64,000 bases of DNA from an uncultured Methylomonas sp. (GCA_936941155.1 CAKZJE010000047.1:11154-75153), one strand, 5' to 3'; positions 88 through 27,722 are shown, counted from the first letter of the stretch. Made by a program: numbers and translations. The notes: generated from the letters alone by a model not told the origin.

Positions 88-831
88 TTATATTAATTTT
101 TGCCTATTTTTTATCATGTTATATAGCCTATTATCCACACTCACTCGTCTTTTAAGAACATCACGAATAATAGGTCTGCTTGTATCAATTTTACGGGATG
201 ATTTAGCCTCATTAACTTTCTTTGAAAAATCATAATTTACTAACTTGTCCTCCAAGGACAGATCTTTCACTACAGAGTTTATTCCCTCTATTAAATTATC
301 TTGAAAGATAATTTTATTAAACCTTTGAGATGCTTTTATTGCAGTATCGATGTCTTTCATTGTAATTAATTCAGTAGTTCCAATAAAATATCGAGTTTGA
401 CAATTATCCAATAATCTTATTCCAAAGTCTTTAATATGAACTAAAAAATAGTCTATTTCTCTATAATCATTTAAATTAGTATTTTTAATCTGATATACAA
501 CTTCTTGTGTTGATTTATTTAGCATATTACATTCACGTTTTTTCTCTGGTAAATTATAATGATCTAACCATAAGATATGTGATGCTAGATGTGAAATAGG
601 CTCACGGATAATAGTAAATAAATAGACATCGTTATCCAACAAACTTTTCAGGTTTGGGTAATATATGTGTCCTGATAAAAAATCAACATTGGAAAATGTA
701 TTTTGTAAATCATCCAGTTTTCTTTCCGCATGTGCAATAAATTTATCTGTGCCTAAAGCGTGCTCAAAAATATCATTTATAGCGGAACCTGCGGTCTTTG
801 CTATGTGCATAAAGACTACTTTTTTATACAT
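88..831 (-). CDS. Sulfotransferase family protein (Sulfotransfer_2/galactose-3-O-sulfotransferase-like)
   Basis: The N-terminal motif VFMHIAKTAGSA resembles the 5'-PSB motif (hIPKTGGTT) of carbohydrate sulfotransferases. The gene lies at the edge of a polysaccharide locus. Confidence 0.5.
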   Translation of the reverse strand: MYKKVVFMHIAKTAGSAINDIFEHALGTDKFIAHAERKLDDLQNTFSNVDFLSGHIYYPNLKSLLDNDVYLFTIIREPISHLASHILWLDHYNLPEKKRECNMLNKSTQEVVYQIKNTNLNDYREIDYFLVHIKDFGIRLLDNCQTRYFIGTTELITMKDIDTAIKASQRFNKIIFQDNLIEGINSVVKDLSLEDKLVNYDFSKKVNEAKSSRKIDTSRPIIRDVLKRRVSVDNRLYNMIKNRQKLI

Positions 832-852
832 AAATCCCTCATACTCAACTCA

Positions 853-3800: not shown

Positions 3801-4380
3801 TGTTACTTTCTTTGTATGCTGCTAAATACCAATTAAAATCAAAATACGGAGTTGGCGAAATAGACTTTTTCCAGCCAATTGTTAAATAATGTTCAATAGG
3901 ATTTGTGATAATTGCAGAAGACTTTGTAGATTCTATATAGTAATACTCGTCAAATAAATCAGCTAATGAATAAACTATTTTTTCTTTGCTTTGTTCTGCA
4001 ATCAATTCATTTAAGGCTTTTAATTCGTTAGTAAAAATATCGTTTCCAAAGCTTTCTTTAGGAAGAATTAAAAGAGCTTTATTCCAACAATTTAAAGCCT
4101 CAGGAAATTTTTTTAAAACCACAAAAGCACGCGCTCTGTTATCTTCAATCCAAACATTTTCACCAAACTTAACTTGTGCATTATCAAGTATTTTTAAAGA
4201 CTTAGAAACATCAATATCACGCAAAAAAATCGCATATTTTAAATAATCTTCTAAAACAGCTTCTGAGTGATTAATTAAACTCATATAAAGCGATAGTTTT
4301 GCATTTTTATCAATTGCCTCATTTAATGAAGCTCTCAATATTTGAATATCTTTGCTTTTAATCATACTTTTATTTTTCAT
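853..4380 (-). CDS. Giant multidomain polysaccharide biosynthesis protein: N-terminal TPR, 7 tandem ~45-aa 'HY..GW..G..PHPLFD..(W/F)Y' repeats, rhamnan-synthesis-F-like glycosyltransferase domain, C-terminal GT-B-like domain
   Basis: The motif PHPLF(D/N)xx(W/F)Y recurs seven times in the translation. The central region (GVFAHIFYPDLAQEML...CCIYISTD) looks like rhamnan synthesis protein F. The C-terminal 350 aa have glycosyltransferase-like features. Confidence 0.55.
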   Translation of the reverse strand: MKNKSMIKSKDIQILRASLNEAIDKNAKLSLYMSLINHSEAVLEDYLKYAIFLRDIDVSKSLKILDNAQVKFGENVWIEDNRARAFVVLKKFPEALNCWNKALLILPKESFGNDIFTNELKALNELIAEQSKEKIVYSLADLFDEYYYIESTKSSAIITNPIEHYLTIGWKKSISPTPYFDFNWYLAAYKESNSTTVDPLSYFIEKGIEKLHNPHPLFNAKWYQETYLSENKINTPPLIHYTTEGWKQNAKPHPLFWSDWYTKTYLKDLAEPIDPFYHFIVWGWRNGFNPNPLFDVKFYQQQHKNEVIGPDPLSHYCYVGWAKGISPHPLFNTKYYLANEGLELTSLKLSPLQHFFENKEMVSPHPLFDAEFYLEQIAPRTLDVPALVDYLAQAWDAKTDPHPFFSKAHYYTYAADVALSEMEALLHYAQSGYSENRAVHPLFDHNFYVAEHQLNLQTTNPLAHYLTIGYHKGSACRNNEAPDQNLKPFPSSRKTITLPTHLKINPDASQHGKVGVFAHIFYPDLAQEMLEKTKNIPSPCCIYISTDTSLKAKEIKAICEEHSIHPFEIRVTPNRGRDIAPMIVGFRDRLKEVDFGIHIHSKKSKHYAKEFNDWRTYLFEANLGTPELVSNILSLLENEKIGAYIPEHFGAIKKLIQWGGNFGMVSGLLGLHNQKVFKESVLDFPSGSMFWFKASALQVLLKTNLRYYHFNPEAGQIDGTLAHAIERSFLYFVEMAGYEWLVGLPATNKKVESIENQELLNNLLAQGNRYLPASHELGTLRHYYPECSKFFVRPSFKTKPRINLLIPTVETSQGYAGVATALDMFFAIREQLGEAFDARLISTDATPSNQYAPPSNYQFIAPLDADVADEDVVIDGAQRYRYPFFVRENDIFMATAWWTAQNALDIMRQQQQIFAGREYPFLYLIQDYECGFYAWSTKYALADQTYRHPEKTIPIFNTEILFNFFKAHNYYQEGFTLYPGINVKYKEAICRDTKKERIVLLYARSHAERNCLPFLDVIISSAAQNNPDFWADWRFIAIGENFNAEKIKISKSIEILGRLTLDEYAELASKSALAISLMVSPHPSYPPLEMAEAGVLVLANNYDNKDLSLTHDNIETFSAFDVDAVSEQLFSLANKWNEDSEIGWRGKAKIDWFFGGKSNLDEVSVTIAEQLLNFI

Positions 4381-4561
4381 ATTATTTTATGAATGATGGT
4401 AAATCGTAATTTTTAAAATACTGACTGTTTGTTGTGTTTTAAGTTAAATCTGTTTCAGCTTTAACAAACATTAAAATCAACATAGAATAACTCAAGAACC
4501 GCGTCTAGTGGAAAACATTGTACTAGGTAGACAAACATAAATATACGGGGGCAGGCTGAAA

Positions 4562-5509
4562 ATGCTGGTTAAAGCACTATTTTTATCAGAAGGACATACT
4601 GCAAGCACCGATTACTTTATTGTTCCTTACTTAGAAAGCAGAGGTTATGAAGTTTCTTTACTTGACTCGCGTTTTTTTGTCACAGATTTCGATTCAAAAC
4701 CTTATCAACTTCTTGTTATTTCACGATATTTAACAGCTAAACAGCTCAGTTTCTTAGAGAAAAAAACACCATCTCAGTTAAAAATTGTTTACTTTATGGA
4801 TGATGATTTGTTCGATTTTCACGCCTTGCGTGGTCTGCCTTGGTTGTATCAGTGGAAAATTTTTACAAAAGCTGTTCGGCATCGTATGCGGTTGCAAAAA
4901 CTGTGTGATGAAATTTGGGTATCAACACCCTTTTTGGCAGAAAAATACGCCCATCTTCAGCCTAAATTATTAAGCCCGATGCTTTCTGGCAAAACGCGGG
5001 AAACTAAACCAGCGGTTCAGGTGTGCTATCATGGCACAGCATCACATCAACAAGAAATTGACTGGTTATTACCGATTATCAGCGCGGTGCAATCACGGAC
5101 GGAAAATATACATTTTGAGCTGTTTGGTTCGCGTACTGTGGCGAAAACTTTTCGGCAACTTCCGCGTGTTTCTGTGTTACATCAAATGAGTTGGACTCAC
5201 TATTTAGCGTTTACTTCCATGCAAAAAAGAGATATTGCTTTAGCTCCTTTGCTAAATAACAGATTTAATGCAGCACGCGGTGCAACTAAGTTTTTCGATT
5301 ATGCGCGGATGGATGCGGTCGGTATTTATTCAAATATCCAACCTTATCAAGGCTTTATTCAAGATGATGTTGATGGTTTTTTGCTCGATAATCAGCCAGA
5401 AAAATGGATAGCAAAAATCGTCGATTTAGCAAATAATCTGCAAAAAAGACAGGAAATGATTCAAGCTATTCAAAATCGCCGCGCTTCTTTAACGCTCCCC
5501 AACTTATAA
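4562..5509 (+). CDS. Putative GT-B glycosyltransferase
   Basis: The C-terminal region (GFLLDNQPEKW...) resembles GT1/GT4 family C-terminal domains, and the gene sits inside the capsule-like locus. Confidence 0.4.
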   Translation: MLVKALFLSEGHTASTDYFIVPYLESRGYEVSLLDSRFFVTDFDSKPYQLLVISRYLTAKQLSFLEKKTPSQLKIVYFMDDDLFDFHALRGLPWLYQWKIFTKAVRHRMRLQKLCDEIWVSTPFLAEKYAHLQPKLLSPMLSGKTRETKPAVQVCYHGTASHQQEIDWLLPIISAVQSRTENIHFELFGSRTVAKTFRQLPRVSVLHQMSWTHYLAFTSMQKRDIALAPLLNNRFNAARGATKFFDYARMDAVGIYSNIQPYQGFIQDDVDGFLLDNQPEKWIAKIVDLANNLQKRQEMIQAIQNRRASLTLPNL

Positions 5510-5513
5510 AAAC

Positions 5514-6503
5514 ATGATTGGCACTTGTTTCGGCACTATTTTAACCGCAACCTATCGCGACCAATTTTTAGGCGAACCGATTGCGCCTTTTTATTTACAT
5601 GTTGGCAACTTAAATGGAATCTGCGGATGGGGACGAAAACTCAGCGGTCGTTGCGCAAGCATTGTGGCTAAGTTATTAAATTTACCCTGTTTTTTATTAG
5701 AAGACGGTTTTTTGCGCTCTTGCGGTTTAGGGGTAGAAAAATCACCGCTACTTTCTATCGTCGTGGATGATTTAGGGATTTATTATGATGCTAGTCGCCC
5801 TTCGCGTTTAGAACACCTGATTAACGCACTGGTGTTAGATGAAACTTTGCAATCCCAAGCCGCAGACGCTTTAAATCTCATTCGCCAACATCGGTTATCA
5901 AAATACAATCACGCCCCTGAATGGCAGTTGCCAAATCTTACAGAGAATGCGCAAACACGGGTTTTGGTGATAGACCAAACTTTGAACGATTTATCGGTGC
6001 GATTAGGCGGGGCAAATAAAAAAGTATTTGCGCAAATGTTAGCGGCAGCGATTGCTGAAAATCCAGGTGCTGAAATTTGGGTAAAAACTCATCCAGACGT
6101 ATTAAGCGGCAAAAAACAAGGTTATTTAGGTCATTTGAACCTAAAATCATCAATTTATTTACTAGCCGAAAATATTTCACCACTGTGTTTATTAGAACAA
6201 ATCGACAAAGTCTATGTTGCCACCTCACAAATGGGTTTTGAAGCCTTGATGTTACACAAACCAGTGGTTTGTTTTGGGCAACCTTGGTATGCAGGCTGGG
6301 GCTTAACCGAAGATCGGCATCCCAAAATGGAAAAATTACGTTCCCGCCGCTCCTCTAAACGCACGTTAGAACAACTGTTTGCCGCTGCTTATTTACAATA
6401 TCCGCGTTACATTCAGCCTGAAACCGGACAACTCGGCACTATTTTTGATGTGATTGCATGGTTGATGCAATACAAAATTTCTGCTCAACAACATGAAAAA
6501 TAG
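5514..6503 (+). CDS. kpsC: KpsC-like capsule polysaccharide beta-Kdo transferase, N-terminal Capsule_synth domain only
   Basis: There is strong colinear similarity to the E. coli KpsC N-terminal half (LEDGFLRS, VVDDxGIYYDAS, WVKxHPDVL, CFGQPWYAxWGLTDDRHP). The protein is 329 aa versus about 675 aa for full KpsC. Confidence 0.7.
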   Translation: MIGTCFGTILTATYRDQFLGEPIAPFYLHVGNLNGICGWGRKLSGRCASIVAKLLNLPCFLLEDGFLRSCGLGVEKSPLLSIVVDDLGIYYDASRPSRLEHLINALVLDETLQSQAADALNLIRQHRLSKYNHAPEWQLPNLTENAQTRVLVIDQTLNDLSVRLGGANKKVFAQMLAAAIAENPGAEIWVKTHPDVLSGKKQGYLGHLNLKSSIYLLAENISPLCLLEQIDKVYVATSQMGFEALMLHKPVVCFGQPWYAGWGLTEDRHPKMEKLRSRRSSKRTLEQLFAAAYLQYPRYIQPETGQLGTIFDVIAWLMQYKISAQQHEK

Positions 6504-7716
6504 ACATTTTTTGTTTCTGCAAGGTGTGGCGAGCCCTTTTTTCGACCAACTTGCTGATGCACTCATCGCCGCACAACAACAGGTTGATAAAATTCATTTT
6601 TGTGGTGGTGACAATTTTTATTGGAAAGACAAAAAAGCATGGCATTTTAACGCCCCCAGCCATCAGCTTGAGGCATTTATTGCAGAAAAATTTTGCCAAG
6701 CACAGTTTACCGATGTTGTTTTGTTTGGCGATATGCGTCCAATTCACCGTCCAGCAATTGCAATTGCCAAAAAATATCAAGCAAAAATCTGGGTATTTGA
6801 AGAAGGTTATCTGCGTCCTAATTGGCTAACTTTGGAAGAAAATGGCGTAAATGGCAATTCATCTCTTTCAAAAAATCCTGATGATTATTTATTGCAATCG
6901 CAACAAATTCCAATGTATCAAAACGGTTTAGATACTGATTATTCAATTCTTATTCGTTTATGGCGCGATATACAATATAATTTTGCGCGTTATTTATTCT
7001 CTTATCGCTACCCACATTATCAATTACACCGACCACAAAGCGCGTTGCGTGAATATTGGGGCTGGATAACGCGATTTCCGATACAAAAAATATTTGGAGA
7101 TTATTTTGCAAATCAAATCCACAAACAATTGTTAAAAAATAACAGTAGTTTTTTCTTATTTCCATTGCAATTACATTACGATGCACAAATAATTTATCAT
7201 TCGCCTTTTGAGACAATTGAAGGGGCTATTTCAATCGTATTAGAATCATTTGCACAGTATGCCGATAAAAAAGATGTGTTGGTGATTAAAAATCATCCAT
7301 TGGATATAGGTATTATTAATTATCGAAAAATTATTCAACAGAAACAAAAACAGTTGAAACTGGAAAATAAAGTTTTTTTTATGAATGGTGGAAATTTAGA
7401 GTTATTCTTAAAAGATTGCAAAGGCACTGTCACCATTAATAGCACTGTAGGTATTTCAGCATTGCAAAATAACTCACCTGTAATTAGTTTAGGAAAAGCA
7501 ATTTACAATATCGCAGGATTAACCTTTCAAGGAAGTTTAGATGATTTTTGGACACAAGCGCAATCACCCGATAAAACATTATTTAAAAACTTTAGAAATA
7601 CAGTGATTCATCAAACACAAATTAATGGCAATTTTTACACCGAAAAAGGTATTGCAATGGCAGTAGAAAACTCTCTTCAGCGTATTTTATGTGCAACTGC
7701 AATGGAAACAGAATGA
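6493..7716 (+). CDS. kpsS: KpsS-like capsule polysaccharide beta-Kdo transferase
   Basis: The N-terminus matches E. coli KpsS (LLQGxxxPFF, GGDxFY, FGDxRPxH, FEEGYLRP). The gene overlaps kpsC by 11 bp. Confidence 0.7.
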   Translation: MKNRHFLFLQGVASPFFDQLADALIAAQQQVDKIHFCGGDNFYWKDKKAWHFNAPSHQLEAFIAEKFCQAQFTDVVLFGDMRPIHRPAIAIAKKYQAKIWVFEEGYLRPNWLTLEENGVNGNSSLSKNPDDYLLQSQQIPMYQNGLDTDYSILIRLWRDIQYNFARYLFSYRYPHYQLHRPQSALREYWGWITRFPIQKIFGDYFANQIHKQLLKNNSSFFLFPLQLHYDAQIIYHSPFETIEGAISIVLESFAQYADKKDVLVIKNHPLDIGIINYRKIIQQKQKQLKLENKVFFMNGGNLELFLKDCKGTVTINSTVGISALQNNSPVISLGKAIYNIAGLTFQGSLDDFWTQAQSPDKTLFKNFRNTVIHQTQINGNFYTEKGIAMAVENSLQRILCATAMETE

Positions 7717-9215
7717 TAATTCTTACCAGCTTGCTTGTTTTAATTGCTTTAACAATTGTTTCAGAACTGTATATTGTTAAACCAAAAAACATTTTTGAAG
7801 ATAGAAAATTCTCTGGTTTATTTATTCACACGTTAGCGATTCTATTTGTTTTTATTGCAGTTTTCTTTATTTTTCATCGTGTTATATTTTCAAGCTGTAT
7901 TGCTTTTGTGATACATTTAATTGTAGTGATTATTAATAACGCAAAATATCAAGCCTTAAAAGAAAGCTTGGTTTTTTCAGATATTGTGATGTTTTCACAA
8001 GCGTTTAAATTCCCGCGTCTGTATTTTCCTTTTGTAAATAGTCTGTTATTAATTGCAGTGCCTATTGTCGTGGTTTTGGCTTTATATTTTGGCTTAATCC
8101 TAGAATCTACCTTTTACTTTAATTCTGGATTAACAGATTCTTTATTGCTATTAATGAGTGATTTTATTTTATTTTTTTTGCTGCACTATTTGGCAAAAAA
8201 ACAAAGTTTAGCTTTTCAGTCAAAAGAGGATTTAAAGAAATTTGGTTTATTTTCCAGTGTTATTATTGGCACAGTGCAAGCTTATCAAGCGTTTAATTTA
8301 AAACAACTTTCTGAACAATTAATTAATACTCCTTTTACATCCTTGTCTGATGTTGAAATAGCGAAAAATCGCACTGATATTATTGTGGTGCAAAGTGAAT
8401 CTTTTTTTGATGTGCGGCGTTTATATGCGGCTATTTCACCTGAAATTTTGAAAAATTATGATGCAATTAAAAGCACAGCGCAATTTTCTGGCAAATTAAA
8501 TGTGCCAGCGTGGGGCGCAAATACCATGCGTACTGAATTTGCTTTTTTGTCGGGATTAAGTGATGAGGAATTAAATTGTTTTCGCTATTATCCGTATCAT
8601 TATATTCATAGCGAAGTTTTTTCTATTGCTGCGTATTTAAAAAAACAAGGTTTTCGCACGGTTTGTATTCATCCTTTTGCAGCGGATTTTTTTGAGCGAA
8701 AACGGGTTTTTTCATTATTGGGTTTTGATGAATTTATTGATATAAAACAATTTAAAAAAACACAGTCTGATGAAATTTATATGAGCGATTTTGCAGTGAC
8801 TGAAAAGATTATTGAAGTTCAAGAAAGTTCTGATAAACCGGTTTTTATTTTTGCAATTACTATCGAAAATCATGGCCCTTTGCATTTAGAAAAAACTTCC
8901 TCTGCGGATGAAAAAATAGTTTATCAAATCAAGCCTGATTTTGATTCGCATGATTTAACGGCTTATTTGCGGCATTTACAAAATGCGGATGCAATGATTG
9001 CGGACTTAACGGCTCATTTTCAGCAAAAAACCACGCAAACGTGTTTTTGTTTTTATGGCGATCATGTGCCTAGCATTCCGAGTGCATATCAGGTGTTGCA
9101 GTTTGAGAATAGCCAAAGCGATTATTTTATTTGGCACAGTCATCAGGATGCAATTTGCGAAACGAAAACCATAGCGGCGCATCAATTGGGTGTGTTATTA
9201 ATGGGGCAATTATGA
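7689..9215 (+). CDS. LTA-synthase/sulfatase-family membrane protein (5 N-terminal TM helices + alkaline-phosphatase-superfamily domain)
   Basis: The N-terminal 170 aa are hydrophobic, and the C-terminal domain resembles phosphoglycerol/phosphoethanolamine transferases. Confidence 0.5.
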   Translation: MCNCNGNRMIILTSLLVLIALTIVSELYIVKPKNIFEDRKFSGLFIHTLAILFVFIAVFFIFHRVIFSSCIAFVIHLIVVIINNAKYQALKESLVFSDIVMFSQAFKFPRLYFPFVNSLLLIAVPIVVVLALYFGLILESTFYFNSGLTDSLLLLMSDFILFFLLHYLAKKQSLAFQSKEDLKKFGLFSSVIIGTVQAYQAFNLKQLSEQLINTPFTSLSDVEIAKNRTDIIVVQSESFFDVRRLYAAISPEILKNYDAIKSTAQFSGKLNVPAWGANTMRTEFAFLSGLSDEELNCFRYYPYHYIHSEVFSIAAYLKKQGFRTVCIHPFAADFFERKRVFSLLGFDEFIDIKQFKKTQSDEIYMSDFAVTEKIIEVQESSDKPVFIFAITIENHGPLHLEKTSSADEKIVYQIKPDFDSHDLTAYLRHLQNADAMIADLTAHFQQKTTQTCFCFYGDHVPSIPSAYQVLQFENSQSDYFIWHSHQDAICETKTIAAHQLGVLLMGQL

Positions 9216-10079: not shown

Positions 10080-11207
10080 TCAAGCTAATAAATTAATCAG
10101 CATTTGCTCATAAATTTTGCTTAAAATTTCTAAATCATCTAGCCCAATATTTTCATTAACTTTATGAATGCTTTCATTCAGCGCACCTAGCTCTAAAACT
10201 TGTGCTCCGGTGGGTGCAATAAAGCGTCCATCAGAAGTGCCGCCGCCTGTGTCGTCCACTGTTTCAAAGCCTGTGATTTGTTGAATGGCAACATGCGCCG
10301 CGTCAATCAACGCGCCGGACGAAGTTAAAAAGGGATTGCCGGATAATCGCCAAGTGATGTCATATTTGAAATCGTATTTGTCTAAAATCGCGTGCGTGCG
10401 TTGCTTAATCATGTCCGCATTCAGTTCTGAACTAAAGCGCAAATTAAACATCACCTCTGCGGTTGCCGGAATAATGTTTTCCGCGCCTGTGCCAGAATTA
10501 ATATTGGACACTTGCAAACTGGTGGGTGGAAAAAATTGGTTGCCGTTATCCCACACTTCTTCCGTGAGTTCTTTCAAGGCTGGGGCAAAACGATGAATCG
10601 GGTTGTTAGCTAATTCGGGATAAGCGACATGTCCTTGAATTCCATGCACTTTTAATAAGGCGTTTAAAGAGCCGCGCCGTCCAACTCGAATCACATCGCC
10701 AATTTTTTTATCAGAAGAAGGCTCGCCGACTAAACACCAGTCGATTTTTTCTTGCCGCGCTTCCAAAACTTCTACCACTTTTACGACACCATTCGTCGCG
10801 ATGCCTTCTTCATCACTGGTCAACAGAACCGCAATTGAGCCTTGGTGATTGGGATGGTTTTCTACAAAACGTTCAACTGCGGTGATAAAAGCGGCAATTC
10901 CGCCTTTCATATCTGCTGCGCCACGACCGTAGAGTTTGCCATTGCGAATGGTTGGTTCAAATGGAGGCGAATCCCATGCCGCTAACGAGCCGGTCGGGAC
11001 AACATCGGTATGCCCTAAAAACACAAACAGCGGTTTTGCCGTGCCGCGTTTTAGCCAAATATTTTGCGTATCATTAAAATCCAGCCGTTCTGCCTGAAAA
11101 GCTAACGGAGCTAAACGTTGAATCAGTAAATCTTGGCAGCCTGCGTCTTTTGGGGTGACAGATTCGCGGCGAATTAAATCAATTAAAAGTTCTAAAGTGG
11201 GTGTCAT
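10080..11207 (-). CDS. dapE: Succinyl-diaminopimelate desuccinylase
   Basis: This is an M20 peptidase with full-length DapE-like sequence ([15 protein letters not shown]). Confidence 0.9.
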
Positions 11208-11545
11208 AGTGTGCGTTGATAGTCATCAGCATTAAAGCCAATCAGAAAAGCATTGCCCGTTGCAAAAATCGGGCGTTTGATTAAAGTCGGATAGTCGAGG
11301 AGTAATTGCAGGGCGGTGTCAGCGGATAAATTCTGTTGTTGCGCATCGCTTAATTGTCGCCATGTGGTGCTGCGTTTGTTGACTAAGGTTTCCCAACCTA
11401 GATTTTGCGCAAATTGCTGCAACAATTCCAAATGAATGCGGTCTACTTTGTAATCATAAAACTCGTAGACGACATTGTGTTGATCCAACCATGCACGGGC
11501 TTTTTTCACGCTGTCGCAGTTTTTAATCCCGTAAAGTGTTGGCAT
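11204..11545 (-). CDS. ArsC/Spx-family protein (YffB-like)
   Basis: [20 protein letters not shown] is the characteristic ArsC-family N-terminus. It is translationally coupled to dapE. Confidence 0.75.
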
Positions 11546-11550
11546 AGCAA

Positions 11551-11805
11551 TTACCAATCGGTGGTTAATAATTCATCAATGCTTGGCAGTTCTTTGTCGT
11601 TTTTGCAGCGTTGTTTGTAAATATCGACAAATTCCATAAAGGCTTGTTCCAAATCATCTAAGGTTTCTTCTTCAATTTCGCGCTCATCAGAAGAGGGAAT
11701 GTCGTCAGAGTTTAAATAGTCTTTTTGGAAAGAAATTTCGCTGTTAATTGCCAAAATTGCGTAAATAATGGCGTTGCTAGAGGGTGATTGAGTCATAGAG
11801 TTCAC
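11551..11805 (-). CDS. Hypothetical acidic protein (84 aa)
   Basis: The ORF ends 5 bp before the arsC-like start. It is highly acidic with no recognisable domain. Confidence 0.35.
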   Translation of the reverse strand: MNSMTQSPSSNAIIYAILAINSEISFQKDYLNSDDIPSSDEREIEEETLDDLEQAFMEFVDIYKQRCKNDKELPSIDELLTTDW

Positions 11806-12202
11806 ATTGGTTAAGTTAAAAGTAAGAAGGTTAAATCGGTTCGGCAGTCATTTTGACAGATGACAATGAGCAAGGTTGTTTTCAGTGTAGCAATAACGCG
11901 CTTTTCCAACAAACTAAAAGATTTTTTTAGCCTTTGCGGCTGGGTTTTGATGGCAGAAAAATAGGTATTTAGCGCGGCATTGAATAGTTTTTTTGTTTTT
12001 TCAAGCGGACTCCATGCTTTGGTTGATTTTAAGTAGTAGAACAATCCAAATTTGTCGCACCTACAAAAAACACTATTAGGCGCGTGCGTTTCATGCCGCA
12101 ATCACTTCATCATGGACAAAATGTAATCGAATCACGCTCGGTTTTTGAGCGTCTTCAAAATGACATGCGACAGCTTCACGAACATTGGTAGTGCGTTTTA
12201 TT

Positions 12203-12475
12203 TTAAGTCGTTGTGACCGCTGTTATTTTTGAAATTAAAGGAAAGTTTTTTGGATTGCGAATTGAATCAATATGCAAATCAATATCCAGTTCAGACCAAT
12301 AAAGATGATGGGGCAGCGGTCTTTCAACACAAAACAGTTGTTCCACAGGAGCTTGACGAAACCAGGGAAATTCTGAAAACGGCACAAAAAGCTCCTCTTC
12401 TTCATCAAGTAAGAGCCAAAAGCCGTGTTTTGAAACGTTTAAAATTTCAACTTGGGAAGTGTTTGTGCCAAGCAT
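12203..12475 (-). CDS. DUF2442-family protein
   Basis: The sequence pattern is typical of DUF2442. It is paired with an upstream DUF4160 gene, as is commonly seen. Confidence 0.55.
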   Translation of the reverse strand: MLGTNTSQVEILNVSKHGFWLLLDEEEELFVPFSEFPWFRQAPVEQLFCVERPLPHHLYWSELDIDLHIDSIRNPKNFPLISKITAVTTT

Positions 12476-12689
12476 TTTTGATTTCCTGTTCGTGTGATTT
12501 AACCAAGTTTTCTGCTTCTTTGAGTTCTTGTGCGGACAAATTGAAGTTTTGCGCTAAAGCAATGATCGGTTCAAGCCAAAACTTTGCTTCGCCATCAGCA
12601 TGTTGAACGTGGACGTGCATTCGTAATTCTTCACGCGAGAAAAAGTAGAAGCGATAGCCGCGTTCGCGGAATACGGTAGGAGGGTTCAT
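12447..12689 (-). CDS. DUF4160-family protein
   Basis: The 80-aa protein is paired with DUF2442, and its start overlaps the stop of the upstream 59-aa ORF (ATGA). Confidence 0.55.
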   Translation of the reverse strand: MNPPTVFRERGYRFYFFSREELRMHVHVQHADGEAKFWLEPIIALAQNFNLSAQELKEAENLVKSHEQEIKNAWHKHFPS

Positions 12690-12863
12690 AAAGTGCCAAA
12701 TCCTGCATTGATAAGAAAATCCAGTTTTCCTGCATTGGAATCTTGCTCAATTTTTTTCTCCCAGCGTGATTGCTCGAATTCGATAAACCAGTCGCGCAAT
12801 TTTGCAAAAGAATTATCATCTAATTCTTCGATGTATTGTTCTATTGTTTCTACTTGAATCATT
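12686..12863 (-). CDS. Small ORF (59 aa, MIQVETIEQYIEELDDNSFAKLRDWFIEFEQSRWEKKIEQDSNAGKLDFLINAGFGTL)
   Basis: This was found by manual translation and is below the ORF-track cutoff. There is an AGGAG RBS 7 nt upstream, and the stop overlaps the DUF4160 start. Confidence 0.3.
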
Positions 12864-12892
12864 TGGAATGACTCCTGAAAATTATTAGGTGG

Positions 12893-12960
12893 CGATATTG
12901 TGATGCTTTTCCCTGATTACATTTCATTCCATCAGGGCTACTTGCTGTTCCTTTATCCGG
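12893..12960. repeat. Cassette-associated ~80-bp repeat, copy A
   Basis: The sequence attgtgatgcttttccctgattacatttcattccatcagggctacttgc resembles the copies at 13022-13075 and 13938-13985. Confidence 0.55.
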
Positions 12961-12989
12961 TTGTATCGGATGGTTATATTCGGGTCTAA

Positions 12990-13080
12990 GTTCATCTTTC
13001 ATAAATAATTATGATTTTGGTATTGTTATGCTTTTTCTGATTTAATTTCATCAATGGTGCTTGCTATTCTCAAGCTTAAT
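12990..13080. repeat. Cassette-associated ~80-bp repeat, copy B
   Basis: It contains catctttcataaataattatgattttggtattgttatgc...catcaatggtgcttgc. The stop codon of gene 13051-13851 lies inside it. Confidence 0.6.
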
Positions 13081-13851
13081 AACAAGCTCCATCCCTTGAA
13101 GCTGATACCGCAGAGAACTTTGCAATTCTTTTTTAATGTCAGTCATTTCCTCTAAAAAGCTACCACCAAAGAATCCCTCCTCTAAATCGCCTGTTATTTC
13201 AAATTCTATTCGCTTGTTCTTTTCCAACACCCGATAAGTCAGGCTAATTTCATCACTCTTATAAAGACCTTCGTTATCCAGAAGAGTACATTTTTTACAT
13301 ATTAAATCATGAGCATCAGTCACTTCTCTAATGCGCATAATTATCCCAACAATATCAATGCTTCCCGGAGAAGGTTTGTGAACATAAGGTCGTTGCGACG
13401 TTCCTGTAATTCCTATTATGGTTAATACAATCGCAGGAATTTTAATTAATTTACCTATGTTTAACTTTAATGAATATCTGTCACGCTTCGCGTAAACAAA
13501 GTGTGCAGCAGGGATAATGACAAAAGCCACCAAATCACTGTAGTCAACCGTGCGAATAAGCTTTAGCAGACTATAGGTATTAATGAATTCGATTAAGGCT
13601 TGAGAATAGGGACTTTTCCAGTATGAAAACAGCCCAACTACAAGCACGGAAGTTTCCAATACCCTCTTTGGAAATGCGTCTCTCAACACTAAAACGATAA
13701 GAAATATTCCAGAAAAGTCAGATATTTTTCCTGTAACAATACCTGGAAAATAATATTTAAAAACATGATCATTCAAGATGAGAAGAAACACGGAAAGTAA
13801 TAAAGGCCATGTTGTATAAATGCTATTTTTCATAGATTTTTCATCTTCCAA
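13051..13851 (-). CDS. Hypothetical membrane protein (266 aa)
   Basis: It has three or four predicted N-terminal TM segments and a soluble C-terminus, with no recognisable domain. Confidence 0.45.
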   Translation of the reverse strand: MEDEKSMKNSIYTTWPLLLSVFLLILNDHVFKYYFPGIVTGKISDFSGIFLIVLVLRDAFPKRVLETSVLVVGLFSYWKSPYSQALIEFINTYSLLKLIRTVDYSDLVAFVIIPAAHFVYAKRDRYSLKLNIGKLIKIPAIVLTIIGITGTSQRPYVHKPSPGSIDIVGIIMRIREVTDAHDLICKKCTLLDNEGLYKSDEISLTYRVLEKNKRIEFEITGDLEEGFFGGSFLEEMTDIKKELQSSLRYQLQGMELVIKLENSKHH

Positions 13852-13899
13852 TTCAGCAAGTAGTCTTCAATCATAAAAATCCATAATCGTTATTTTTAT

Positions 13900-13985
13900 C
13901 CCATTCGTATTTCATAAATAATTACAGTTTTGATATTGTTATGATTTTCCTAATCTATTTCATTCCATCTGGGCTATTTGCTAAT
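13900..13985. repeat. Cassette-associated ~80-bp repeat, copy C
   Basis: The sequence gtatttcataaataattacagttttgatattgttatgattttcc...cattccatctgggctatttgc is about 75% identical to copy B. The stop of gene 13974-14354 lies inside it. Confidence 0.6.
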
Positions 13986-14354
13986 TTTTTCTTTTCTAAC
14001 TCTAATAAAAACTACAATACACCACAGAATTATTGCCGATATAATCATTACCATAACGAGCATATAAAGTGGAAGCCATCTAAGAGCAACAAAAACACAC
14101 AGAATTAACCATGCTAGCAAGAAAAGCACTAAAGTTTTAAAAAAGATTTTTCGTTTAGTGCCTGGTGTTGCAAATATTGCAGCAATACCAGAGATGATTA
14201 GCTGTATTGCAAATAAAATTGAACTTAAACAGCCAAGTGCATAAAAAAGCACTGCAAGTGACAGGATTTCAACTCCGGATTTTGCATAAGCCGAGTTTGG
14301 CATTAAAAATAATGCAATTCCCAACATATTATTTTTAATCATAAAAATCCACAA
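13974..14354 (-). CDS. Small polytopic membrane protein (126 aa)
   Basis: It has four hydrophobic segments and no recognisable domain. Confidence 0.4.
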   Translation of the reverse strand: MWIFMIKNNMLGIALFLMPNSAYAKSGVEILSLAVLFYALGCLSSILFAIQLIISGIAAIFATPGTKRKIFFKTLVLFLLAWLILCVFVALRWLPLYMLVMVMIISAIILWCIVVFIRVRKEKISK

Positions 14355-14384
14355 TCGATTGCAAAGCGGTCAACAACTTGCACA

Positions 14385-14425
14385 CCCAATAAACAAAAAA
14401 GCCGACATTGCGTCGGCTTTCTTGT
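14385..14425 (-). terminator. Rho-independent terminator downstream of dapD
   Basis: On the minus strand the hairpin aaagccgac-gcaatg-tcggcttt is followed by a T-run. Confidence 0.5.
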
Positions 14426-14436
14426 GTCAAAACTAA

Positions 14437-15255
14437 TTAATCCCGCAACAACTCATTAATGCTAGTTTTGCTGCGTGTTCTTTCATCCACTTGTTTAATG
14501 ATAACAGCGCAATACAAACTGTATTTGCCATCGCTGGAAGGCAAGTTGCCCGAAACCACTACCGAACCTGCTGGAATGCGCCCGTAAGTCACTTCGCCCG
14601 TCATGCGGTTGAAAATCTTGGTGCTTTGACCAATATAAACGCCCATTGAAATCACTGAGCCTTCTTCCACAATCACGCCTTCCACGATTTCAGAACGTGC
14701 GCCGATAAAACAATTGTCTTCAATAATCGTTGGTGCAGCTTGCAATGGCTCTAGCACTCCACCTATGCCTACGCCACCGGACAAATGCACGTTTTTACCA
14801 ATTTGCGCACATGAACCGACTGTCACCCAAGTGTCAACCATGGTGCCGCTATCCACATACGCGCCGATATTCACATAAGACGGCATTAAAATTGCGCCCG
14901 GAGCGATATAAGAACCGTGTCTGGCATTGGCATTTGGCACAACCCGCACGCCCGCTTTGGCGAAATCTTCGGGGGTGTAAGTGGCAAATTTAGTTTCGAT
15001 TTTGTCGTAATAACGATTTACACCGCCGTCCATTACACGGTTTTCGTTGATTCTGAAAGACAGCAACACAGCTTTTTTCAGCCATTGATTCACTACCCAT
15101 TGCCCATTGATTTTTTCGGCAACCCGCGCTGTGCCCTTGTCTAGTAAGTTTACTGATGCTTCAATGGCATCACGCAATTCCGCGCACACGCTGGTTGGAG
15201 TGATGTCGGCACGGTTTTCAAAAGCGTCACAAATAATTTTTTCAAGATTTTGCAT
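14437..15255 (-). CDS. dapD: 2,3,4,5-tetrahydropyridine-2,6-dicarboxylate N-succinyltransferase
   Basis: It is near-colinear with E. coli DapD ([21 protein letters not shown], hexapeptide repeats). Confidence 0.9.
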
Positions 15256-15309
15256 GATAATTTTTAAGATTACAGAGAGTTAATAAAATGTTGTGTTAGA
15301 TTTCTAGCA

Positions 15310-15341
15310 AACCTTTCAGGTCTTAAAGACCTGAAAGGTTT
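15310..15341. repeat. Palindromic element acctttcaggtcttaaagacctgaaaggtt (family R2) at the dapC 3' end
   Basis: This is a perfect 13-bp stem. A near-identical copy lies at 28487-28518. Confidence 0.6.
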
Positions 15342-16576
15342 AAACCAGCAATAAAGTTTTTGATTCGCAAAGCCGCTTCCGTGCATTCTGCCACCGGAGC
15401 AACTAAAGCAATTCTGACATGATTTTCACCCGGATTAACGCCATCAGCTTCGCGTGATAAATAACTGCCCGGCAACACAGTGACGTTTTGCTGGGCAAAA
15501 AGTTGTTGCGCAAAATCCGTATCTGACATCCCCCTCATTCCCCCTTTGTTAAAGGGGGACGCTGAAAGCTGGGGGATTTTCAACCAAATATAAAAACTGG
15601 CAGGCGGTTTTTTCACTTCACAAACATCAGACAAAACATTGATAAATGCGGCAAATTTTTCCCGATACAGTTTTCTGTTTTCCACCACATGCGCTTCATC
15701 TTGCCATGCCGCAATACTGGCATATTGCGTTGGCAGTGGCATTGGGCAGCCGTGATAAGTGCGATATTGAAAATAACTTGCCAAAATATCAGCATCACCC
15801 GCGACAAAACCGGAACGCAAGCCCGGCGCGTTAGAGCGTTTTGATAAACTTTGAAACATCACACAGCGTTTAAAAGCCGTGTTGCCGAGTTGATACGCCG
15901 ATTGCAATAAACCTTGCGGTGGATTTTGTTCATCATCATAAAGTTCGGTGTAGCATTCATCCGATGCGATGACAAAATCAAACTTTTTAGCTAACGCTAA
16001 GATTTTCTGATGTTGTTCTTTGCTCAATAAAGTTCCGGTCGGATTGCCTGGCGAACAAATAAACAGCAATGCGCAGCGTTGCCAAACTTCATCGGGTACG
16101 CTGTCAAAATCAGGCAAATAGTCATTTTCCTCCGGCGTATTCAAATAATAAGGTGTTGCGCCCGCTAACAGAGCCGCGCCTTCATAAATTTGATAAAACG
16201 GATTTGGCATTACCACCAGAGGTTTTTCGTTTGGATTAACCACCGCTTGCACAAACGAAAACAGAGCCTCGCGCGTACCGCTGACGGGTAGCACTTGTGT
16301 TTCTGGATTTACACTATTTTCAGAAAATCCGAACCGCTTTTCGATCCATTGACTAATCGTGCCGCGTAACTGCGGCAAACCTTTCGTGGTTGGATAATTG
16401 CCTAATCCTGACAAGTTATTTATCAACGCTTGTTGAATAAATGCCGGCGTGGGATGTTTTGGCTCGCCAATGGATAAAGCAATATGCGCTTTTTCCGCTG
16501 GCGGCGTAATCCCCTGTTTTAAAGAACTCAGTTTTTCAAACGGATAAGGGTGACATTGAGTTAAATACGGGTTCAT
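15323..16576 (-). CDS. dapC: Class I aminotransferase, probable N-succinyl-LL-diaminopimelate aminotransferase
   Basis: It has the aminotransferase I/II fold with a PLP lysine region (SLSKRSNAPGLRSGF), and the dapC-dapD arrangement is known from betaproteobacterial loci. It also contains an unusual GC-rich in-frame insertion (see findings). Confidence 0.65.
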   Translation of the reverse strand: MNPYLTQCHPYPFEKLSSLKQGITPPAEKAHIALSIGEPKHPTPAFIQQALINNLSGLGNYPTTKGLPQLRGTISQWIEKRFGFSENSVNPETQVLPVSGTREALFSFVQAVVNPNEKPLVVMPNPFYQIYEGAALLAGATPYYLNTPEENDYLPDFDSVPDEVWQRCALLFICSPGNPTGTLLSKEQHQKILALAKKFDFVIASDECYTELYDDEQNPPQGLLQSAYQLGNTAFKRCVMFQSLSKRSNAPGLRSGFVAGDADILASYFQYRTYHGCPMPLPTQYASIAAWQDEAHVVENRKLYREKFAAFINVLSDVCEVKKPPASFYIWLKIPQLSASPFNKGGMRGMSDTDFAQQLFAQQNVTVLPGSYLSREADGVNPGENHVRIALVAPVAECTEAALRIKNFIAGLNLSGL

Positions 16577-17364
16577 TTGCTACAGTTTGGACGTTTACCG
16601 GAAGCTTGCGCTTGTTGATATTGTTGCAATGCACCCGCCATATTATTGTTTAATTCGCTAATGCGGCTGGCATTGGCAGGATGCGTGGACATAAATTCAG
16701 GCGTTTCTTGTCCGCCACTGGCTTGCGACATTTTTTGCCACAGTGCCAAGCTTTGTCTAGGGTCAAAGCCTGATTGCGCCATTAAGCGTAAGCCAATGAT
16801 GTCGGCTTCGCTTTCTTGGGTACGACTGTAAGGTAATAACACACCGTATTCTGCTGCCATCCCTAACGCGCTCATGCCTAGCTGTCCTAACGCTGTTTGC
16901 GGAACGCCTACCACAGCACCTACAACGCTCATGCCTTGATTCATGGCAGTTTCTTGCGACATTCTTTCGTTGCTGTGTTTGGCTAAAACGTGACCAATTT
17001 CATGCCCGATGACGGCGGCTAATTGTGATTGATCTGTGACCATATTCACTAAGCCGGTATATACGCCGATTTTATTGCCCGGCAATGCAAAAGCGTTCAG
17101 AGAATTATCTTCAAAAACAACAATTTCCCATACGCCACCGCCGACTAATTGCGTAATCGGTTGCGCAATGCAGTTTACATAGCTGGTATAGCGGCTGTTG
17201 GTTGTCACGGGTTTGGTTTGTTTTAATTTGGTAAATGCTTGCAATCCCATTTCCGACATTTGTGTATCAGGCATCATCATGAACTGAGTTCTGCCGGTGG
17301 GGCTTTTGGTGCAAGCTGTTAAAACACAGCAGGCGGCTAACGTTAAGAGGAGTTTGTTACGCAT
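16573..17364 (-). CDS. M48-family zinc metalloprotease lipoprotein (YcaL/LoiP-like)
   Basis: It has the HEXXH motif VIGHEIGHVLAKH and the lipobox LTAC. Confidence 0.75.
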   Translation of the reverse strand: MRNKLLLTLAACCVLTACTKSPTGRTQFMMMPDTQMSEMGLQAFTKLKQTKPVTTNSRYTSYVNCIAQPITQLVGGGVWEIVVFEDNSLNAFALPGNKIGVYTGLVNMVTDQSQLAAVIGHEIGHVLAKHSNERMSQETAMNQGMSVVGAVVGVPQTALGQLGMSALGMAAEYGVLLPYSRTQESEADIIGLRLMAQSGFDPRQSLALWQKMSQASGGQETPEFMSTHPANASRISELNNNMAGALQQYQQAQASGKRPNCSK

Positions 17365-19726: not shown

Positions 19727-20014
19727 TTATTCCTTCCATTTGTTTTTATCGTATTCGGCGTGAGTGAGGACATTGCGGATATAGATTCGGTGGCTGTTGT
19801 AGTGAATGGCGGCAATCAAGCGCACTTTGTTACCTGCAATGTTAAACACGGTGAGTTTGCCAACTTGGTCGGCGTGTGGGAATAGGGTTTTGAGTTCGTT
19901 AAACGAGTTAAAGTCGTTTGTTTTTACCACGCGATACCAATGTTGCAAGGCGGTTTTTACGTCAGGATATAAAACTGCAAAGTCGTTTAGCCGTTTTCGC
20001 GTGATGATGTGCAT
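19727..20014 (-). CDS. higB: HigB-family type II toxin (mRNA interferase)
   Basis: MHIITRKRLNDFA...VFNIAGNKVRLIAAIHYNSHRIYIRNVLTHAEYDK closely matches the HigB consensus. Confidence 0.8.
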   Translation of the reverse strand: MHIITRKRLNDFAVLYPDVKTALQHWYRVVKTNDFNSFNELKTLFPHADQVGKLTVFNIAGNKVRLIAAIHYNSHRIYIRNVLTHAEYDKNKWKE

Positions 20015-20027
20015 TATTTTACGTTTC

Positions 20028-20088
20028 GTTTTTGGCTTTTAACGCAAGAGGCGGCGCAATGCGTTTCACTATTGCACTTTACCGCGCT
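20028..20088. repeat. Repeat family R5, copy 2
   Basis: tttggcttttaacgcaagaggcggcgcaatgcgtttcactattgcactttaccgcgc. Confidence 0.6.
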
Positions 20089-20533
20089 AATTTAAAATAA
20101 TTTCCCAATCCTTTAACATCACAATATTTCCTAATTGCGAAGTTTTAGAAAAATGTCTTTTATCCGCAGTGACAAAATAGCAATTATTCAAAATTGCTAA
20201 AGCATGATAAACCGCATCATAAAATGATGGAAAGCCTGATTTATCATGTCCCATATCACAAATAGCTAAAGCTTTTTCAATGATTGGCGAGTTTAATTCA
20301 ATAAGCTGTAATCCTAAATTTTGTAATTTCGTAATAATGGCATAAATCTGTTGTATGTCAACTTTACTGACTTTAGCAACTGCCAAGACTTCATATAAAA
20401 ATAAGTTGGGGGCAAAAATTTCATAGGCTTGTGCCGTTAAATGATTAATTAATGCAATTGCTTTGTCTGTTTCAGGTTCTTGTAGAAACAGTTTATTAAA
20501 TACACAGGAATCTAAAACAATTTTATTTTCCAT
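20087..20533 (-). CDS. vapC: PIN-domain toxin (VapC-like)
   Basis: The acidic residues expected of a PIN fold are present (D8, E48, D104/D124-like positions). Confidence 0.7.
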   Translation of the reverse strand: MENKIVLDSCVFNKLFLQEPETDKAIALINHLTAQAYEIFAPNLFLYEVLAVAKVSKVDIQQIYAIITKLQNLGLQLIELNSPIIEKALAICDMGHDKSGFPSFYDAVYHALAILNNCYFVTADKRHFSKTSQLGNIVMLKDWEIILN

Positions 20534-20868: not shown

Positions 20869-20906
20869 ATGCGGCGCAATACGTTTCACTATTGCACCCT
20901 ACCGAG
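20869..20906. repeat. Repeat family R5, partial copy 3
   Basis: The sequence is gcggcgcaatacgtttcactattgcaccctaccgagc, and it forms the truncation junction of the second higB copy. Confidence 0.55.
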
Positions 20907-21096
20907 CTTTGTTACCTGCAATGTTAAACACGGTGAGTTTGCCAACTTGGTCGGCGTGTGGGAATAAGGTTTTGAGTTCGTTAAACGAGTTAAAGTCGTT
21001 TGTTTTTACCACGCGATACCAATGTTGCAAGGCGGTTTTTACGTCAGGATATAAAACTGCAAAGTCGTTTAGCCGTTTTCGCGTGATGATGTGCAT
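20899..21096 (-). pseudogene. higB: Truncated duplicate of higB (first 63 codons identical to 19727-20014)
   Basis: About 225 bp (20907-21130) are near-identical to 19814-20037. The coding region breaks at an R5 repeat. Confidence 0.7.
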
Positions 21097-21107
21097 TATT
21101 TTTCGTT

Positions 21108-21170
21108 TCGTTTTTGGCTTTTAACGCAAGAGGCGGCGCAATATGTTTTACTATTGCGCCCTACCGCGCT
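21108..21170. repeat. Repeat family R5, copy 4
   Basis: ttttggcttttaacgcaagaggcggcgcaatatgttttactattgcgccctaccgcgc. Confidence 0.6.
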
Positions 21171-21582
21171 ACGATTTTGCTTCCCAAAATGGTATCCAGT
21201 TTCGTACAGGCTTTGTATTTTCACAGTCTGAATGATAGCGTCTTGCCAAGTATTTATCTCCATCTTCTAAACCTTTCTTGTATTCACTTGTTGCATTAAG
21301 AGGTATATGTGTTGGTGTAAGTATAGCGACAAATACTGTGCCATCTTCAATCACTTTTATTTCAAATGGCTTCCAACCTACATAACCGCCCATCCCATTT
21401 TTAACATTAATTTCACTGCACCAAATCTTACGATTATCACTAGAAGTGATATTACGAAACATTGCTGAACCTGGGTCTATTAAATCACTATGCTTAATAA
21501 CCATATCCCGAAGATAATCTTCTGTTTTTGTGCAACCAGTAATAAATAAGCTAATAAGCAAAGTGATAATAAGTTTTTTCAT
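21169..21582 (-). CDS. Hypothetical lipoprotein (paralog of 22034-22510)
   Basis: It has the lipobox ITGC and a shared motif N(G/K)xGGY(V/I)G(W/Y)xPF(E/K)(I/V). Confidence 0.5.
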   Translation of the reverse strand: MKKLIITLLISLFITGCTKTEDYLRDMVIKHSDLIDPGSAMFRNITSSDNRKIWCSEINVKNGMGGYVGWKPFEIKVIEDGTVFVAILTPTHIPLNATSEYKKGLEDGDKYLARRYHSDCENTKPVRNWIPFWEAKS

Positions 21583-26640: not shown

Positions 26641-26765
26641 AACTCTTTATTATCAATGATTTTGTTATAAAAACTGTCAAACTATCTTGTGTAGATGCCT
26701 ATGCGTGAACGTAGTTCCGTTGTGTTTCAATGTCTCTACAGTATTACCCATTGAGTCAATCGCCA

Positions 26766-27472: not shown

Positions 27473-27722
27473 AGGCAATTTCAAAAAAACAACCTGCTTA
27501 CAACTTCAGTATTTAGAGGCGCAACTATCTATATTATATTGCAAGCAAGTAATTGATTTATTATGATTTTTAGAAACGAAAAACCTTGCGTCTCTACGCT
27601 AAAAGCAACGTACTAGCAAAAGTTTGGACGATTTTTGTAGTCTAACACGGATGCTCACGCAATCACCGCCACCTTAAAATGTACGTTTACGCACTTATCA
27701 ATCGCTCTATTTTGAGTACATT

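Follow-up and report, generated by a model that had tools for sequence, protein, structure and literature searches.

Variable islets that lie between conserved genes and are exchanged by homologous recombination are known from Neisseria as 'minimal mobile elements'. GTAG repetitive extragenic palindromes (REPs) are short stem-loops ending in GTAG that lie mostly downstream of coding regions, singly, as dimers or in groups, and that are thought to be made, and cleaved at GTAG, by REP-associated tyrosine transposases (RAYTs) (PMC3733652, Di Nocera et al. 2013); REPINs and the RAYT (TnpA-REP, Y1/HUH) transposases were described by Bertels and Rainey (2011; PMC3116915). The Methylococcales methanotrophs were not among the genomes surveyed for GTAG REPs (PMC3733652), and they carry chromosomal integrons with an order-specific attC type (PMC8352920). 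Here we analyse an islet of small genes and gene-end repeats between dapD and an arsC-like/dapE block in an uncultured Methylomonas sp. (GCA_936941155.1 CAKZJE010000047.1:11154-75153). The whole stretch of 64,000 nt is called the window, and coordinates refer to it unless a related locus is named; related loci are labelled L001 onward, and the set taken from the genome collection comprises 80 dapD loci.

Our analysis indicates that positions 11806-14436 are probably a lineage-specific Methylococcales islet at a dapD|o84-arsC-dapE hot spot, made up of REP-tagged mini-cassettes, an orphan copy of the repeat element REP-A and a toxin-antitoxin-like module. In this arrangement, two tandem mini-cassettes would each comprise a 5' leader with a Shine-Dalgarno (SD) sequence and ATG, one membrane-protein open reading frame (ORF; o126 or o266) and a 3' REP-type GTAG hairpin, and an orphan 3' element (R1) together with the three-gene o58/DUF4160/DUF2442 module would complete the islet. 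The GC content is 30-36% over 12800-14400, as against 45-49% in the flanking dap genes.

The left border of the variable gap is dapD (15255-14437; NCBIfam TIGR00965, 475 bits), which is conserved at 72-95% identity across the 80 related loci. In ten outgroup gammaproteobacterial loci, dapD and arsC are only 5-20 nt apart, which confirms an insertion as opposed to an ancestral arrangement. The first-pass annotation, which had proposed an insertion here and a check of whether dapD abuts the arsC-like gene in relatives, was therefore right about the event, and all six small same-strand ORFs that it listed between dapD and arsC-like/dapE were found. Its boundary was nevertheless too wide: the acidic 84-aa protein o84 (11805-11551), which it had counted as inserted, has counterparts of 55-78% identity directly ahead of arsC-dapE in 27 of the 80 related loci, every one of them of Methylococcales type. 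Hence, o84 is part of a conserved o84-arsC-dapE block that forms the right border, and the variable segment is 11806-14436. Across 26 Methylococcales loci the dapD-o84 gap ranges from 29 to 3225 nt, and in relatives it holds genes for Uma2, DUF1456, a BglII-type endonuclease with an MT-A70 methylase, a ParE toxin, PLDc_2, Endonuclease_NS (NucA-type) and HNH nucleases and a DDE transposase. The gap is a hot spot into which accessory and defence-type genes have been inserted repeatedly. None of the 80 related loci has o126, o266 or the DUF4160/DUF2442 pair there, these genes occupying it only in the same-species contigs L001-L003, and no relative was seen with the same genes at this position and no repeats, an arrangement that had been named as evidence for ancestry. 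At the right end of the segment, some 400 nt (12202-11806) hold no called gene: the L001 and L002 gene tables list none, there is no likeness to the gap genes of relatives and no remnant gene, and homology to relatives begins only at o84.

Two further observations concern this region. The closest relative, L004 (CAIQWF010000190.1; dapD 95% identical), has o84-arsC-dapE inverted, about 8 kb off and behind an HD-GYP gene, with convergent bfd-like and GGDEF genes after dapD; either an inversion broke the locus in the dapD|o84 gap or the metagenome-assembled genome (MAG) is misassembled, and L004 yielded no empty-site comparison. In addition, o84 has a full-length but weak match to the NCBIfam Tsi2 (type VI secretion system immunity) family (E 2e-4, 21.8 bits against a cut-off of 70).

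Three related repeats are present on the minus (coding) strand where the first-pass annotation had located them: R3 (13890-13986), R2 (12973-13069) and R1 (12863-12950). A 40-nt degenerate pattern matches exactly these three sites in 64 kb, with 0 expected in shuffles, and covariance models likewise detect only R1-R3 within the window. The REP-A core has the head AGCAAGTAG, a 7-bp stem and a loop of about 13 nt; the GTAG abuts the stem directly, and the loop sequence GGAATGAAATG is conserved more than the stem. R1, the best-preserved copy, reads AGCAAGTAG CCCTGAT ggaatgaaatgta ATCAGGG AAAA in coding orientation, scores 59-66 bits with the covariance models (R3, 45-56 bits) and has a tail that runs up to the AGGAG before o58. 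In R2 (core 13021-13069) the head is mutated to GCAC and the loop is shortened; in R3 (core 13938-13986) the head is ATAG and the stem has decayed. The repeats had been described as starting exactly at stop codons; instead, the copies overlap the final 3-9 codons. The R3 head supplies the stop TAG of o126 (13974-13976), o266 extends to a TGA 6 nt further because the R2 head is mutated, and no gene lies upstream of R1. R2 and R3 reach about 115 nt, longer than the 70-90 bp first given. The '80-bp repeats' are composite: the first ~45 nt are a REP-like element (REP-A), and behind it comes flanking DNA that local duplication or recombination copied together with the element.

The same layout had been likened to an integron-type array, in which the repeats would be attC sites moved by an IntI encoded elsewhere in the genome. 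No pair of attC cores (RYYYAAC...GTTRRRY) exists at any repeat, by regular-expression search of both strands over 11500-14500; the sole such pair between 11.5 and 14.5 kb falls within the DUF4160 coding sequence (12497-12608), and the eight pairs in the whole window correspond to the background rate. When the three repeats were folded as single-stranded DNA, as had been suggested for the recognition of attC-like bulged hairpins, z ranged from -1.9 to +0.4 against shuffles on both strands, with no long paired structure. The conserved features are a 7-bp stem, a loop and a GTAG head rather than the bulged R''-L''/L'-R' hairpin of attC, and in relatives the core occurs as inverted doublets, unlike attC sites. 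In agreement with the first-pass annotation, no integrase was found among the ~30 scanned window ORFs or in the precomputed Pfam table of L001; the ORF scan gave no integrase, transposase, recombinase or Phage_integrase match, the remaining large housekeeping ORFs being read only by eye. An integron would suit small, co-oriented, low-GC ORFs that belong to no known family or to toxin-antitoxin types and that each have a repeat behind them, and chromosomal integrons are known in the order (PMC8352920). Even so, this explanation is largely refuted, and we give it hardly any credence.

Other identities were tried for the repeats and rejected. A Xer/dif-like site (pdif module) was dismissed on inspection, as there is no CATAA-6-TTATG core with XerD-arm similarity and the closest stretch has a 4-nt spacing that is not conserved between copies. 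A conserved small peptide within the repeat (a 47-aa ORF at 12859-13002 and MKCNQ-type ORFs) was discarded because the frames are broken in R2, R3, L096 and L003. A search of Rfam returned nothing at the repeats, only weak, below-threshold matches on the dapD terminator.

Outside the window, about 11 further copies of REP-A were found in ~0.87 Mb of related DNA and metagenome contigs. The core follows an o266 homolog in L091 and an o126 homolog in L095, and a pattern scan of metagenomes located it after an FGE-sulfatase protein (L096) and after an 83-aa ORF (L097). A covariance model built from these copies, then run on other Methylococcales contigs, recovered GC-richer relatives. Inverted tail-to-tail doublets are among them (L089, 7133-7229 and 1199-1294; L039, 8197-8296), the window copies being all direct. 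One L089 doublet places AGCAAGTAG CCCGTAT...ATACGGG beside an inverted AGCAAGTAG CCCGCAT...ATGCGGG, and the second begins 10 nt past the stop of an SduA_C (Shedu C-terminal domain) gene. A weak copy also lies inside the dapD-o84 gap of Methylomonas methanica (L034); apart from such distant relatives in L039 and L034, the 80 dapD loci contain no REP-A copy. All copies are intergenic or 0-30 nt from a stop codon, two window copies overlapping the last codons.

To assess the stem, 11 copies from six contigs were aligned. Paired bases occupy 83% of the stem cells, compared with 70% in shuffles, and there are 11 double-sided stem changes where 4.3 are expected (0 of 500 shuffles reach 11). Compensatory changes affect four of the seven stem pairs, and slid registers give at most 51% paired cells. 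The stem variants include CCCTGAT/ATCAGGG, CCCGTAT/ATACGGG, CCCGCAT/ATGCGGG and CGCGTGT/ACACGGG; the variant in L095 keeps its pairing only via G-U. The head is GTAG in R1, L091, L096, L097, the four L089 copies (L089a-d) and L039, and GTGG in L095. These features fit GTAG-type REP/REPIN elements. REP-A hairpins would then be substrates or relics of a RAYT-type Y1 transposase system and, in mRNA, would form 3' stem-loops like those of other REPs.

A purely local origin must be weighed against this, in which the repeats are decayed tandem duplications of the o266 3' end and flank and the copies elsewhere are remnants of deleted o266-type genes. The head AATAGCAAGTAGC does belong to the 3' end of o266 homologs, even of distant ones elsewhere (L086, L089); R1 is 91% identical to the native 3' flank of the L091 o266 homolog; the 64-kb window holds no other copy; and the first 40-nt pattern had no match in JGI metagenomes or IMG/VR. 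Yet, in other contigs, the core is found after no fewer than four unrelated genes and occurs as inverted doublets with compensatory stem changes. Because of these unrelated genes, doublets and compensatory changes, we regard REP-A as an element maintained by its structure, not as the decay of one gene's flank, and consider a purely local origin unlikely.

That every cassette carries the element on the coding strand directly after a stop codon could also mean that it is mainly a functional RNA signal, such as a stabiliser in the 3' untranslated region, a processing site or a small RNA, and not a DNA-level repeat. Pairing of the L095 stem solely through G-U and the loop GGAATGAAATG, more constant than its stem, would agree with this. 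The inverted doublets in L089 and L039, however, cannot all be on the coding strand, no Rfam family matches and there is no U-tract for termination. Moreover, a role in RNA is compatible with REPs, which are also active in mRNA, rather than an alternative to them. As a separate explanation, an RNA signal is quite improbable, and a GTAG-type REP is preferred.

Beyond the ~45-nt core, R2 and R3 have a further ~70 nt in common; the R1 tail differs from theirs, and parts of it recur in L095 and L096. The R2 tail holds a possible remnant gene start, MKDELRPEYN, with a weak resemblance (E 0.05-0.08) to a small ORF with ELRPEYD that precedes o266 in L091 and also occurs in the L048 gap. A 24-nt box, AATCATAAAAATCCAYAATCG, absent from the first-pass annotation, occurs at 13866-13889 and 14334-14357, just upstream of both membrane-protein ORFs; a search with the box pattern returned one chance-like match, within a coding region of a virus (L098). 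The o266 leader of L091 is unbroken and matches window positions 14380-14334 plus 13866-13830. Since that leader is continuous, o126 and R3 in the window sit between two box copies. The first-pass idea of serial duplication is partly correct: the R2/R3 tails and the box are locally duplicated, and the repeat core is a GTAG-headed REP-type hairpin. Campbell-type integration or unequal crossover between units sharing box and repeat could have produced the window layout.

The strain variant L003 (97.6% identical) bears on the same repeats. Its R3 stem is intact (CCCTGAT/ATCAGGG), and at 2650-2746 its R2 tail is of the R3 type, the contig ending there; this reflects either gene conversion between repeats or a further cassette after o266 in that strain. 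The intact R3 stem and the R3-like R2 tail point to ongoing exchange between repeat copies.

The box is part of a longer 5' element (5'E; consensus GTTGTTGACGGCGTTGCAAACGATTGTGGATTTTTATGA). The full copy (14334-14382, GTTGTTGACCGCTTTGCAATCGATTGTGGATTTTTATGATT), with an SD-like GGA and an ATG, precedes o126; the short copy (13866-13889) consists of the box alone, with the R3 tail in place of the upstream half. Over 32-40 nt, the element matches the DNA that precedes unrelated cargos in L091, L095 and L097 at 89-94% identity. It precedes o126 in both the window and L095; in the window (short copy) and L091 it precedes a 14-codon upstream ORF (uORF) that overlaps the o266 start; and in L097 it stands before an unrelated 165-aa ORF (ORF165), which together with the 83-aa ORF (ORF83) is closed by REP-A. 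In all three cases the homology ends at ATG(A), the start codon. A consensus scan calls part of the 5'E promoter-like (-35 at 14365-14360, -10 at 14343-14338); as its ATG serves as start codon, we argue that it is mainly a translation-initiation leader. The uORF (13830-13874 in the window, 463-507 in L091; MIEDYLL...NL*) uses the ATG at 13874 in the box copy, and in both loci its TGA overlaps the o266 ATG (ATGA), which suggests translational coupling or leader-peptide control of o266.

Hence, three unrelated cargos (o126; uORF+o266; ORF165+ORF83) at four loci have one and the same pair of ends, the 39-nt 5'E and the 3' REP-A, and the neighbours differ from locus to locus: dapD, plsY with a DUF2283 pair, a 79-aa ORF, and an HTH antitoxin-like gene. 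The cassette-like layout of the first-pass annotation is borne out in this sense, with common 5' and 3' boundary elements around unrelated ORFs both here and in other contigs. A distant ORF165 homolog, L101, shows no clear 5'E or REP-A.

Do these units move as true gene cassettes, by means of a RAYT, another HUH/Y1 enzyme or a site-specific recombinase for which the hairpin end is the recognition site? None of the copies has a linked recombinase, and the 5'E has no hairpin resembling the 3' end, unlike the ends of IS200/IS605. Terminal inverted repeats were rejected on inspection, the reverse complement of the 5'E being ~67% identical to the 3' tails with indels and not conserved in L091 or L095; so was a target-site duplication, as GCAAG flanks the unit on each side in the window and L003 but in none of L091, L095 and L097, and the flanking bases vary by locus. 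The supporting contigs are all 0.9-2.7 kb and therefore give thin context. Movement would nonetheless account for identical ends around three unrelated cargos at four loci with differing neighbours, for 5'E homology that stops exactly at ATG(A), and for flank identity (86-100%) equal to or above coding identity (83-87% at the nucleotide level). Homologous recombination via shared flanks could yield the same pattern, and we judge dedicated cassette movement to have a low probability. For the shared ends, homologous recombination through them is our leading guess, active mobilisation being less likely; the directly repeated flanks may allow cassette gain and loss by unequal crossover, or by loop-out circles that re-integrate.

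A bolder proposal is that units of 5'E, variable cargo and GTAG hairpin are previously undescribed, integrase-less, REP-tagged small mobile cassettes of the Methylococcales. We regard this as speculative and rather improbable. Under it, the ends would be recognition sites for RAYT-like or other enzymes acting on single-stranded DNA, or else portable homology arms, and one gene could then replace an unrelated one at the start codon, with arrays building up at hot spots that have many toxin-antitoxin and defence genes.

Several points weigh against REP-tagged cassettes as the explanation of the islet. A classical REP family is dispersed and abundant, and REP-A in the window amounts to only three copies in 64 kb, all direct and all in one 1.1-kb stretch. 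The 7-bp AT-rich stem folds no better than shuffled sequence in a 90-nt context, and the heads and stems of R2 and R3 are degenerate. The assignment of all copies to one family involves judgement, because those in L089, L039 and L034 are GC-richer and scored 18-30 bits with the first model; these same copies establish the covariation and the doublets. The window contains no RAYT and no recombinase. Finally, REP biology leaves the common 5' leader around three unrelated cargos unexplained.

GTAG-hairpin elements are a feature of the window genome, since the window holds two more families. REP-B lies on the minus strand between 19451 and 21171 and reads CGGTAG GGCGCAATA gtaaaaca TATTGCGCC GCCTCTTGCGT. 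Its four direct copies (21163-21124, 20901-20862, 20081-20042 and 19490-19451) each stand directly after a small toxin-antitoxin-type gene (YafQ, HigB, PIN). A 278-nt direct repeat of 95% identity (19812-20089 and 20894-21171) carries REP-B and the 5' part of a higB-like gene, and the copy at 20901 truncates the second higB. The array echoes the dapD islet, with REPs punctuating an array of addiction genes. REP-C (GTAG GTTCGGA ttta TCCGAAC AATGC) has three dispersed intergenic copies, at 18297(+), 34274(+) and 59050(-), two of which have an inverted GTAG...CTAC partner and are REPIN-like. Lone GTAG hairpins are present at 21620(+) and 63921(+) as well.

Genes of the RAYT type were found in relatives. 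In a related MAG, L043, such a gene (3773-4300, with two frameshifts) lies ~6 kb upstream of dapD and scores 148 bits after repair with NCBIfam NF047646 (REP_Tyr_transpos; cut-off 80). Perfect inverted repeats of ~30 nt (TAGGATGCTGCCGACGTAAGGAGGCGCATC and its complement) flank it, and CAAGTAG stands just ahead of the start codon. L032 has a weaker RAYT-type gene. The tblastn query was an E. coli RayT sequence, and the NCBIfam score stands independently of it. Separately, L084 has GC-rich GTAG-hairpin doublets (~5890-6000 and 6830-7020; for example GTAG TTCGGGTTA gcgatagcg TAACCCGA) on both sides of a distant o266 homolog that follows fabF. The o266 family seems to land in REP-rich intergenic DNA.

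As for the cargo, o126 (14342-13974) is a small membrane protein with a signal-peptide-like N-terminus, 122 aa long if it starts at the box ATG or 117 aa if at the following one. It has no Pfam, NCBIfam or PADLOC match and is nearly an ORFan, with two clusters only among 5.8 billion proteins; its homolog in L095 (68%) lies at a different locus with the same flanks. The membrane protein o266 (13833-13051, 260 aa) lacks a Pfam match and belongs to a large uncharacterised family (4715 representatives by profile search). Its 24 close clusters are all Methylococcales-like and at different loci, and its relatives sit singly at the ends of different conserved operons, often by ParE/Phd, PIN or HicAB pairs. 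An AlphaFold2 model (pLDDT 73) predicts 5-6 transmembrane helices and a C-terminal alpha/beta domain. It resembles cation-diffusion facilitators weakly, the best Foldseek match (YiiP/ZnT, E 1.3e-3, TM 0.2) being too weak to use.

The remaining three genes follow R1. The small acidic o58 (12862-12686, 58 aa), without a significant family match in Pfam, NCBIfam or PADLOC, overlaps the DUF4160 gene (12689-12447) at ATGA and is translationally coupled to it. The DUF4160 gene in turn overlaps the DUF2442 gene (12475-12203) at 12447-12475, the toxin-family gene coming first. Pfam upholds both of these first-pass labels (PF13711, E 3e-17; PF10387, E 4e-13), and the DUF4160 protein has a weak match to NCBIfam toxin_DhiT (19.8 bits against a cut-off of 100). 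A DUF4160 toxin and a DUF2442 antitoxin form the experimentally shown dhiTA (DhiTA) system (PMC8198452). From their sequences, o58/DUF4160/DUF2442 are predicted to be a DhiTA-type toxin-antitoxin-like module. PADLOC assigned no defence family to any islet protein.

Every gene from 10080 to 17364 is on the minus strand. Upstream of dapD lie an M48 peptidase gene (17364-16573) and dapC (16576-15323), and 3' of dapD is an intrinsic-terminator-like hairpin (14425-14393; GCCGAC-GCAAT-GTCGGC followed by a T-run), an inverted repeat with 14-nt arms that are 93% complementary. On the other side, o84 is followed by the arsC-like gene (11557-11204) and dapE (11207-10080); NCBIfam upholds the identities of dapD, dapE and the ArsC-family gene. 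Adjoining dapE, positions 88-9215 hold an accessory-looking, capsule-type polysaccharide cluster with sulfotransferase, glycosyltransferase and Capsule_synth (KpsC/KpsS-like) genes and a sulfatase-family membrane protein, the GC content falling to 30-34% around 8000-9000. Elsewhere, at 26687-28448, two DUF6901 paralogues of 261 and 241 aa stand side by side (Pfam E 7e-71 and 7e-79).

Taken together, these results remove a false lead, in that integron-looking gene-end repeats are REP-type hairpins plus local duplication. They document a GTAG-REP family, and two further families, in Methylococcales methanotrophs, and they show the dapD|o84 junction to be a recurrent landing site for restriction-modification, toxin-antitoxin and nuclease genes. 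If the shared leader and REP ends reflect active mobilisation, REP/RAYT systems, so far regarded as self-moving only, would be tied to gene movement.

Compared with described systems, REP-A shares with GTAG REPs and REPINs an unpaired GTAG 5' of a short stem-loop, an extragenic position downstream of genes, stems that covary while the head is kept, an occurrence as singles and groups and, in relatives, as inverted doublets, and RAYT genes in related genomes. It differs in that the window has only three clustered direct copies, with a short AT-rich 7-bp stem, an unusually long conserved loop of 13 nt and an extended head (AGCAAGTAG) that overlaps stop codons; travelling with a fixed 5' leader around variable cargo is likewise not a described REP property. 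Integron arrays resemble the islet in having small co-oriented genes, of unknown or toxin-antitoxin type, each followed by a repeat, in a chromosomal variable region where the same boundaries enclose different cargos. The islet, in contrast, has neither R''/R' cores nor a bulged hairpin of the attC type, and the window yielded neither integrase nor attI; each of its units has its own 5' leader (SD and ATG), and the REP-A core also exists as inverted doublets. The predicted toxin-antitoxin-like module has the same domain pair as DhiTA (PMC8198452), with the toxin gene first and the genes overlapping; it departs from DhiTA in its weak match to the DhiT equivalog and in an additional coupled 58-aa ORF upstream. 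As in the minimal mobile elements of Neisseria, a fixed housekeeping pair (dapD and o84-arsC-dapE) flanks a variable segment without a dedicated recombinase, although the cassettes here carry portable flanks (5'E and REP-A) and recur elsewhere in other genomes. The islet is thus a new lineage-specific variant of known things, namely GTAG REPs and variable islets, with one unexplained feature, the shared leader and REP.

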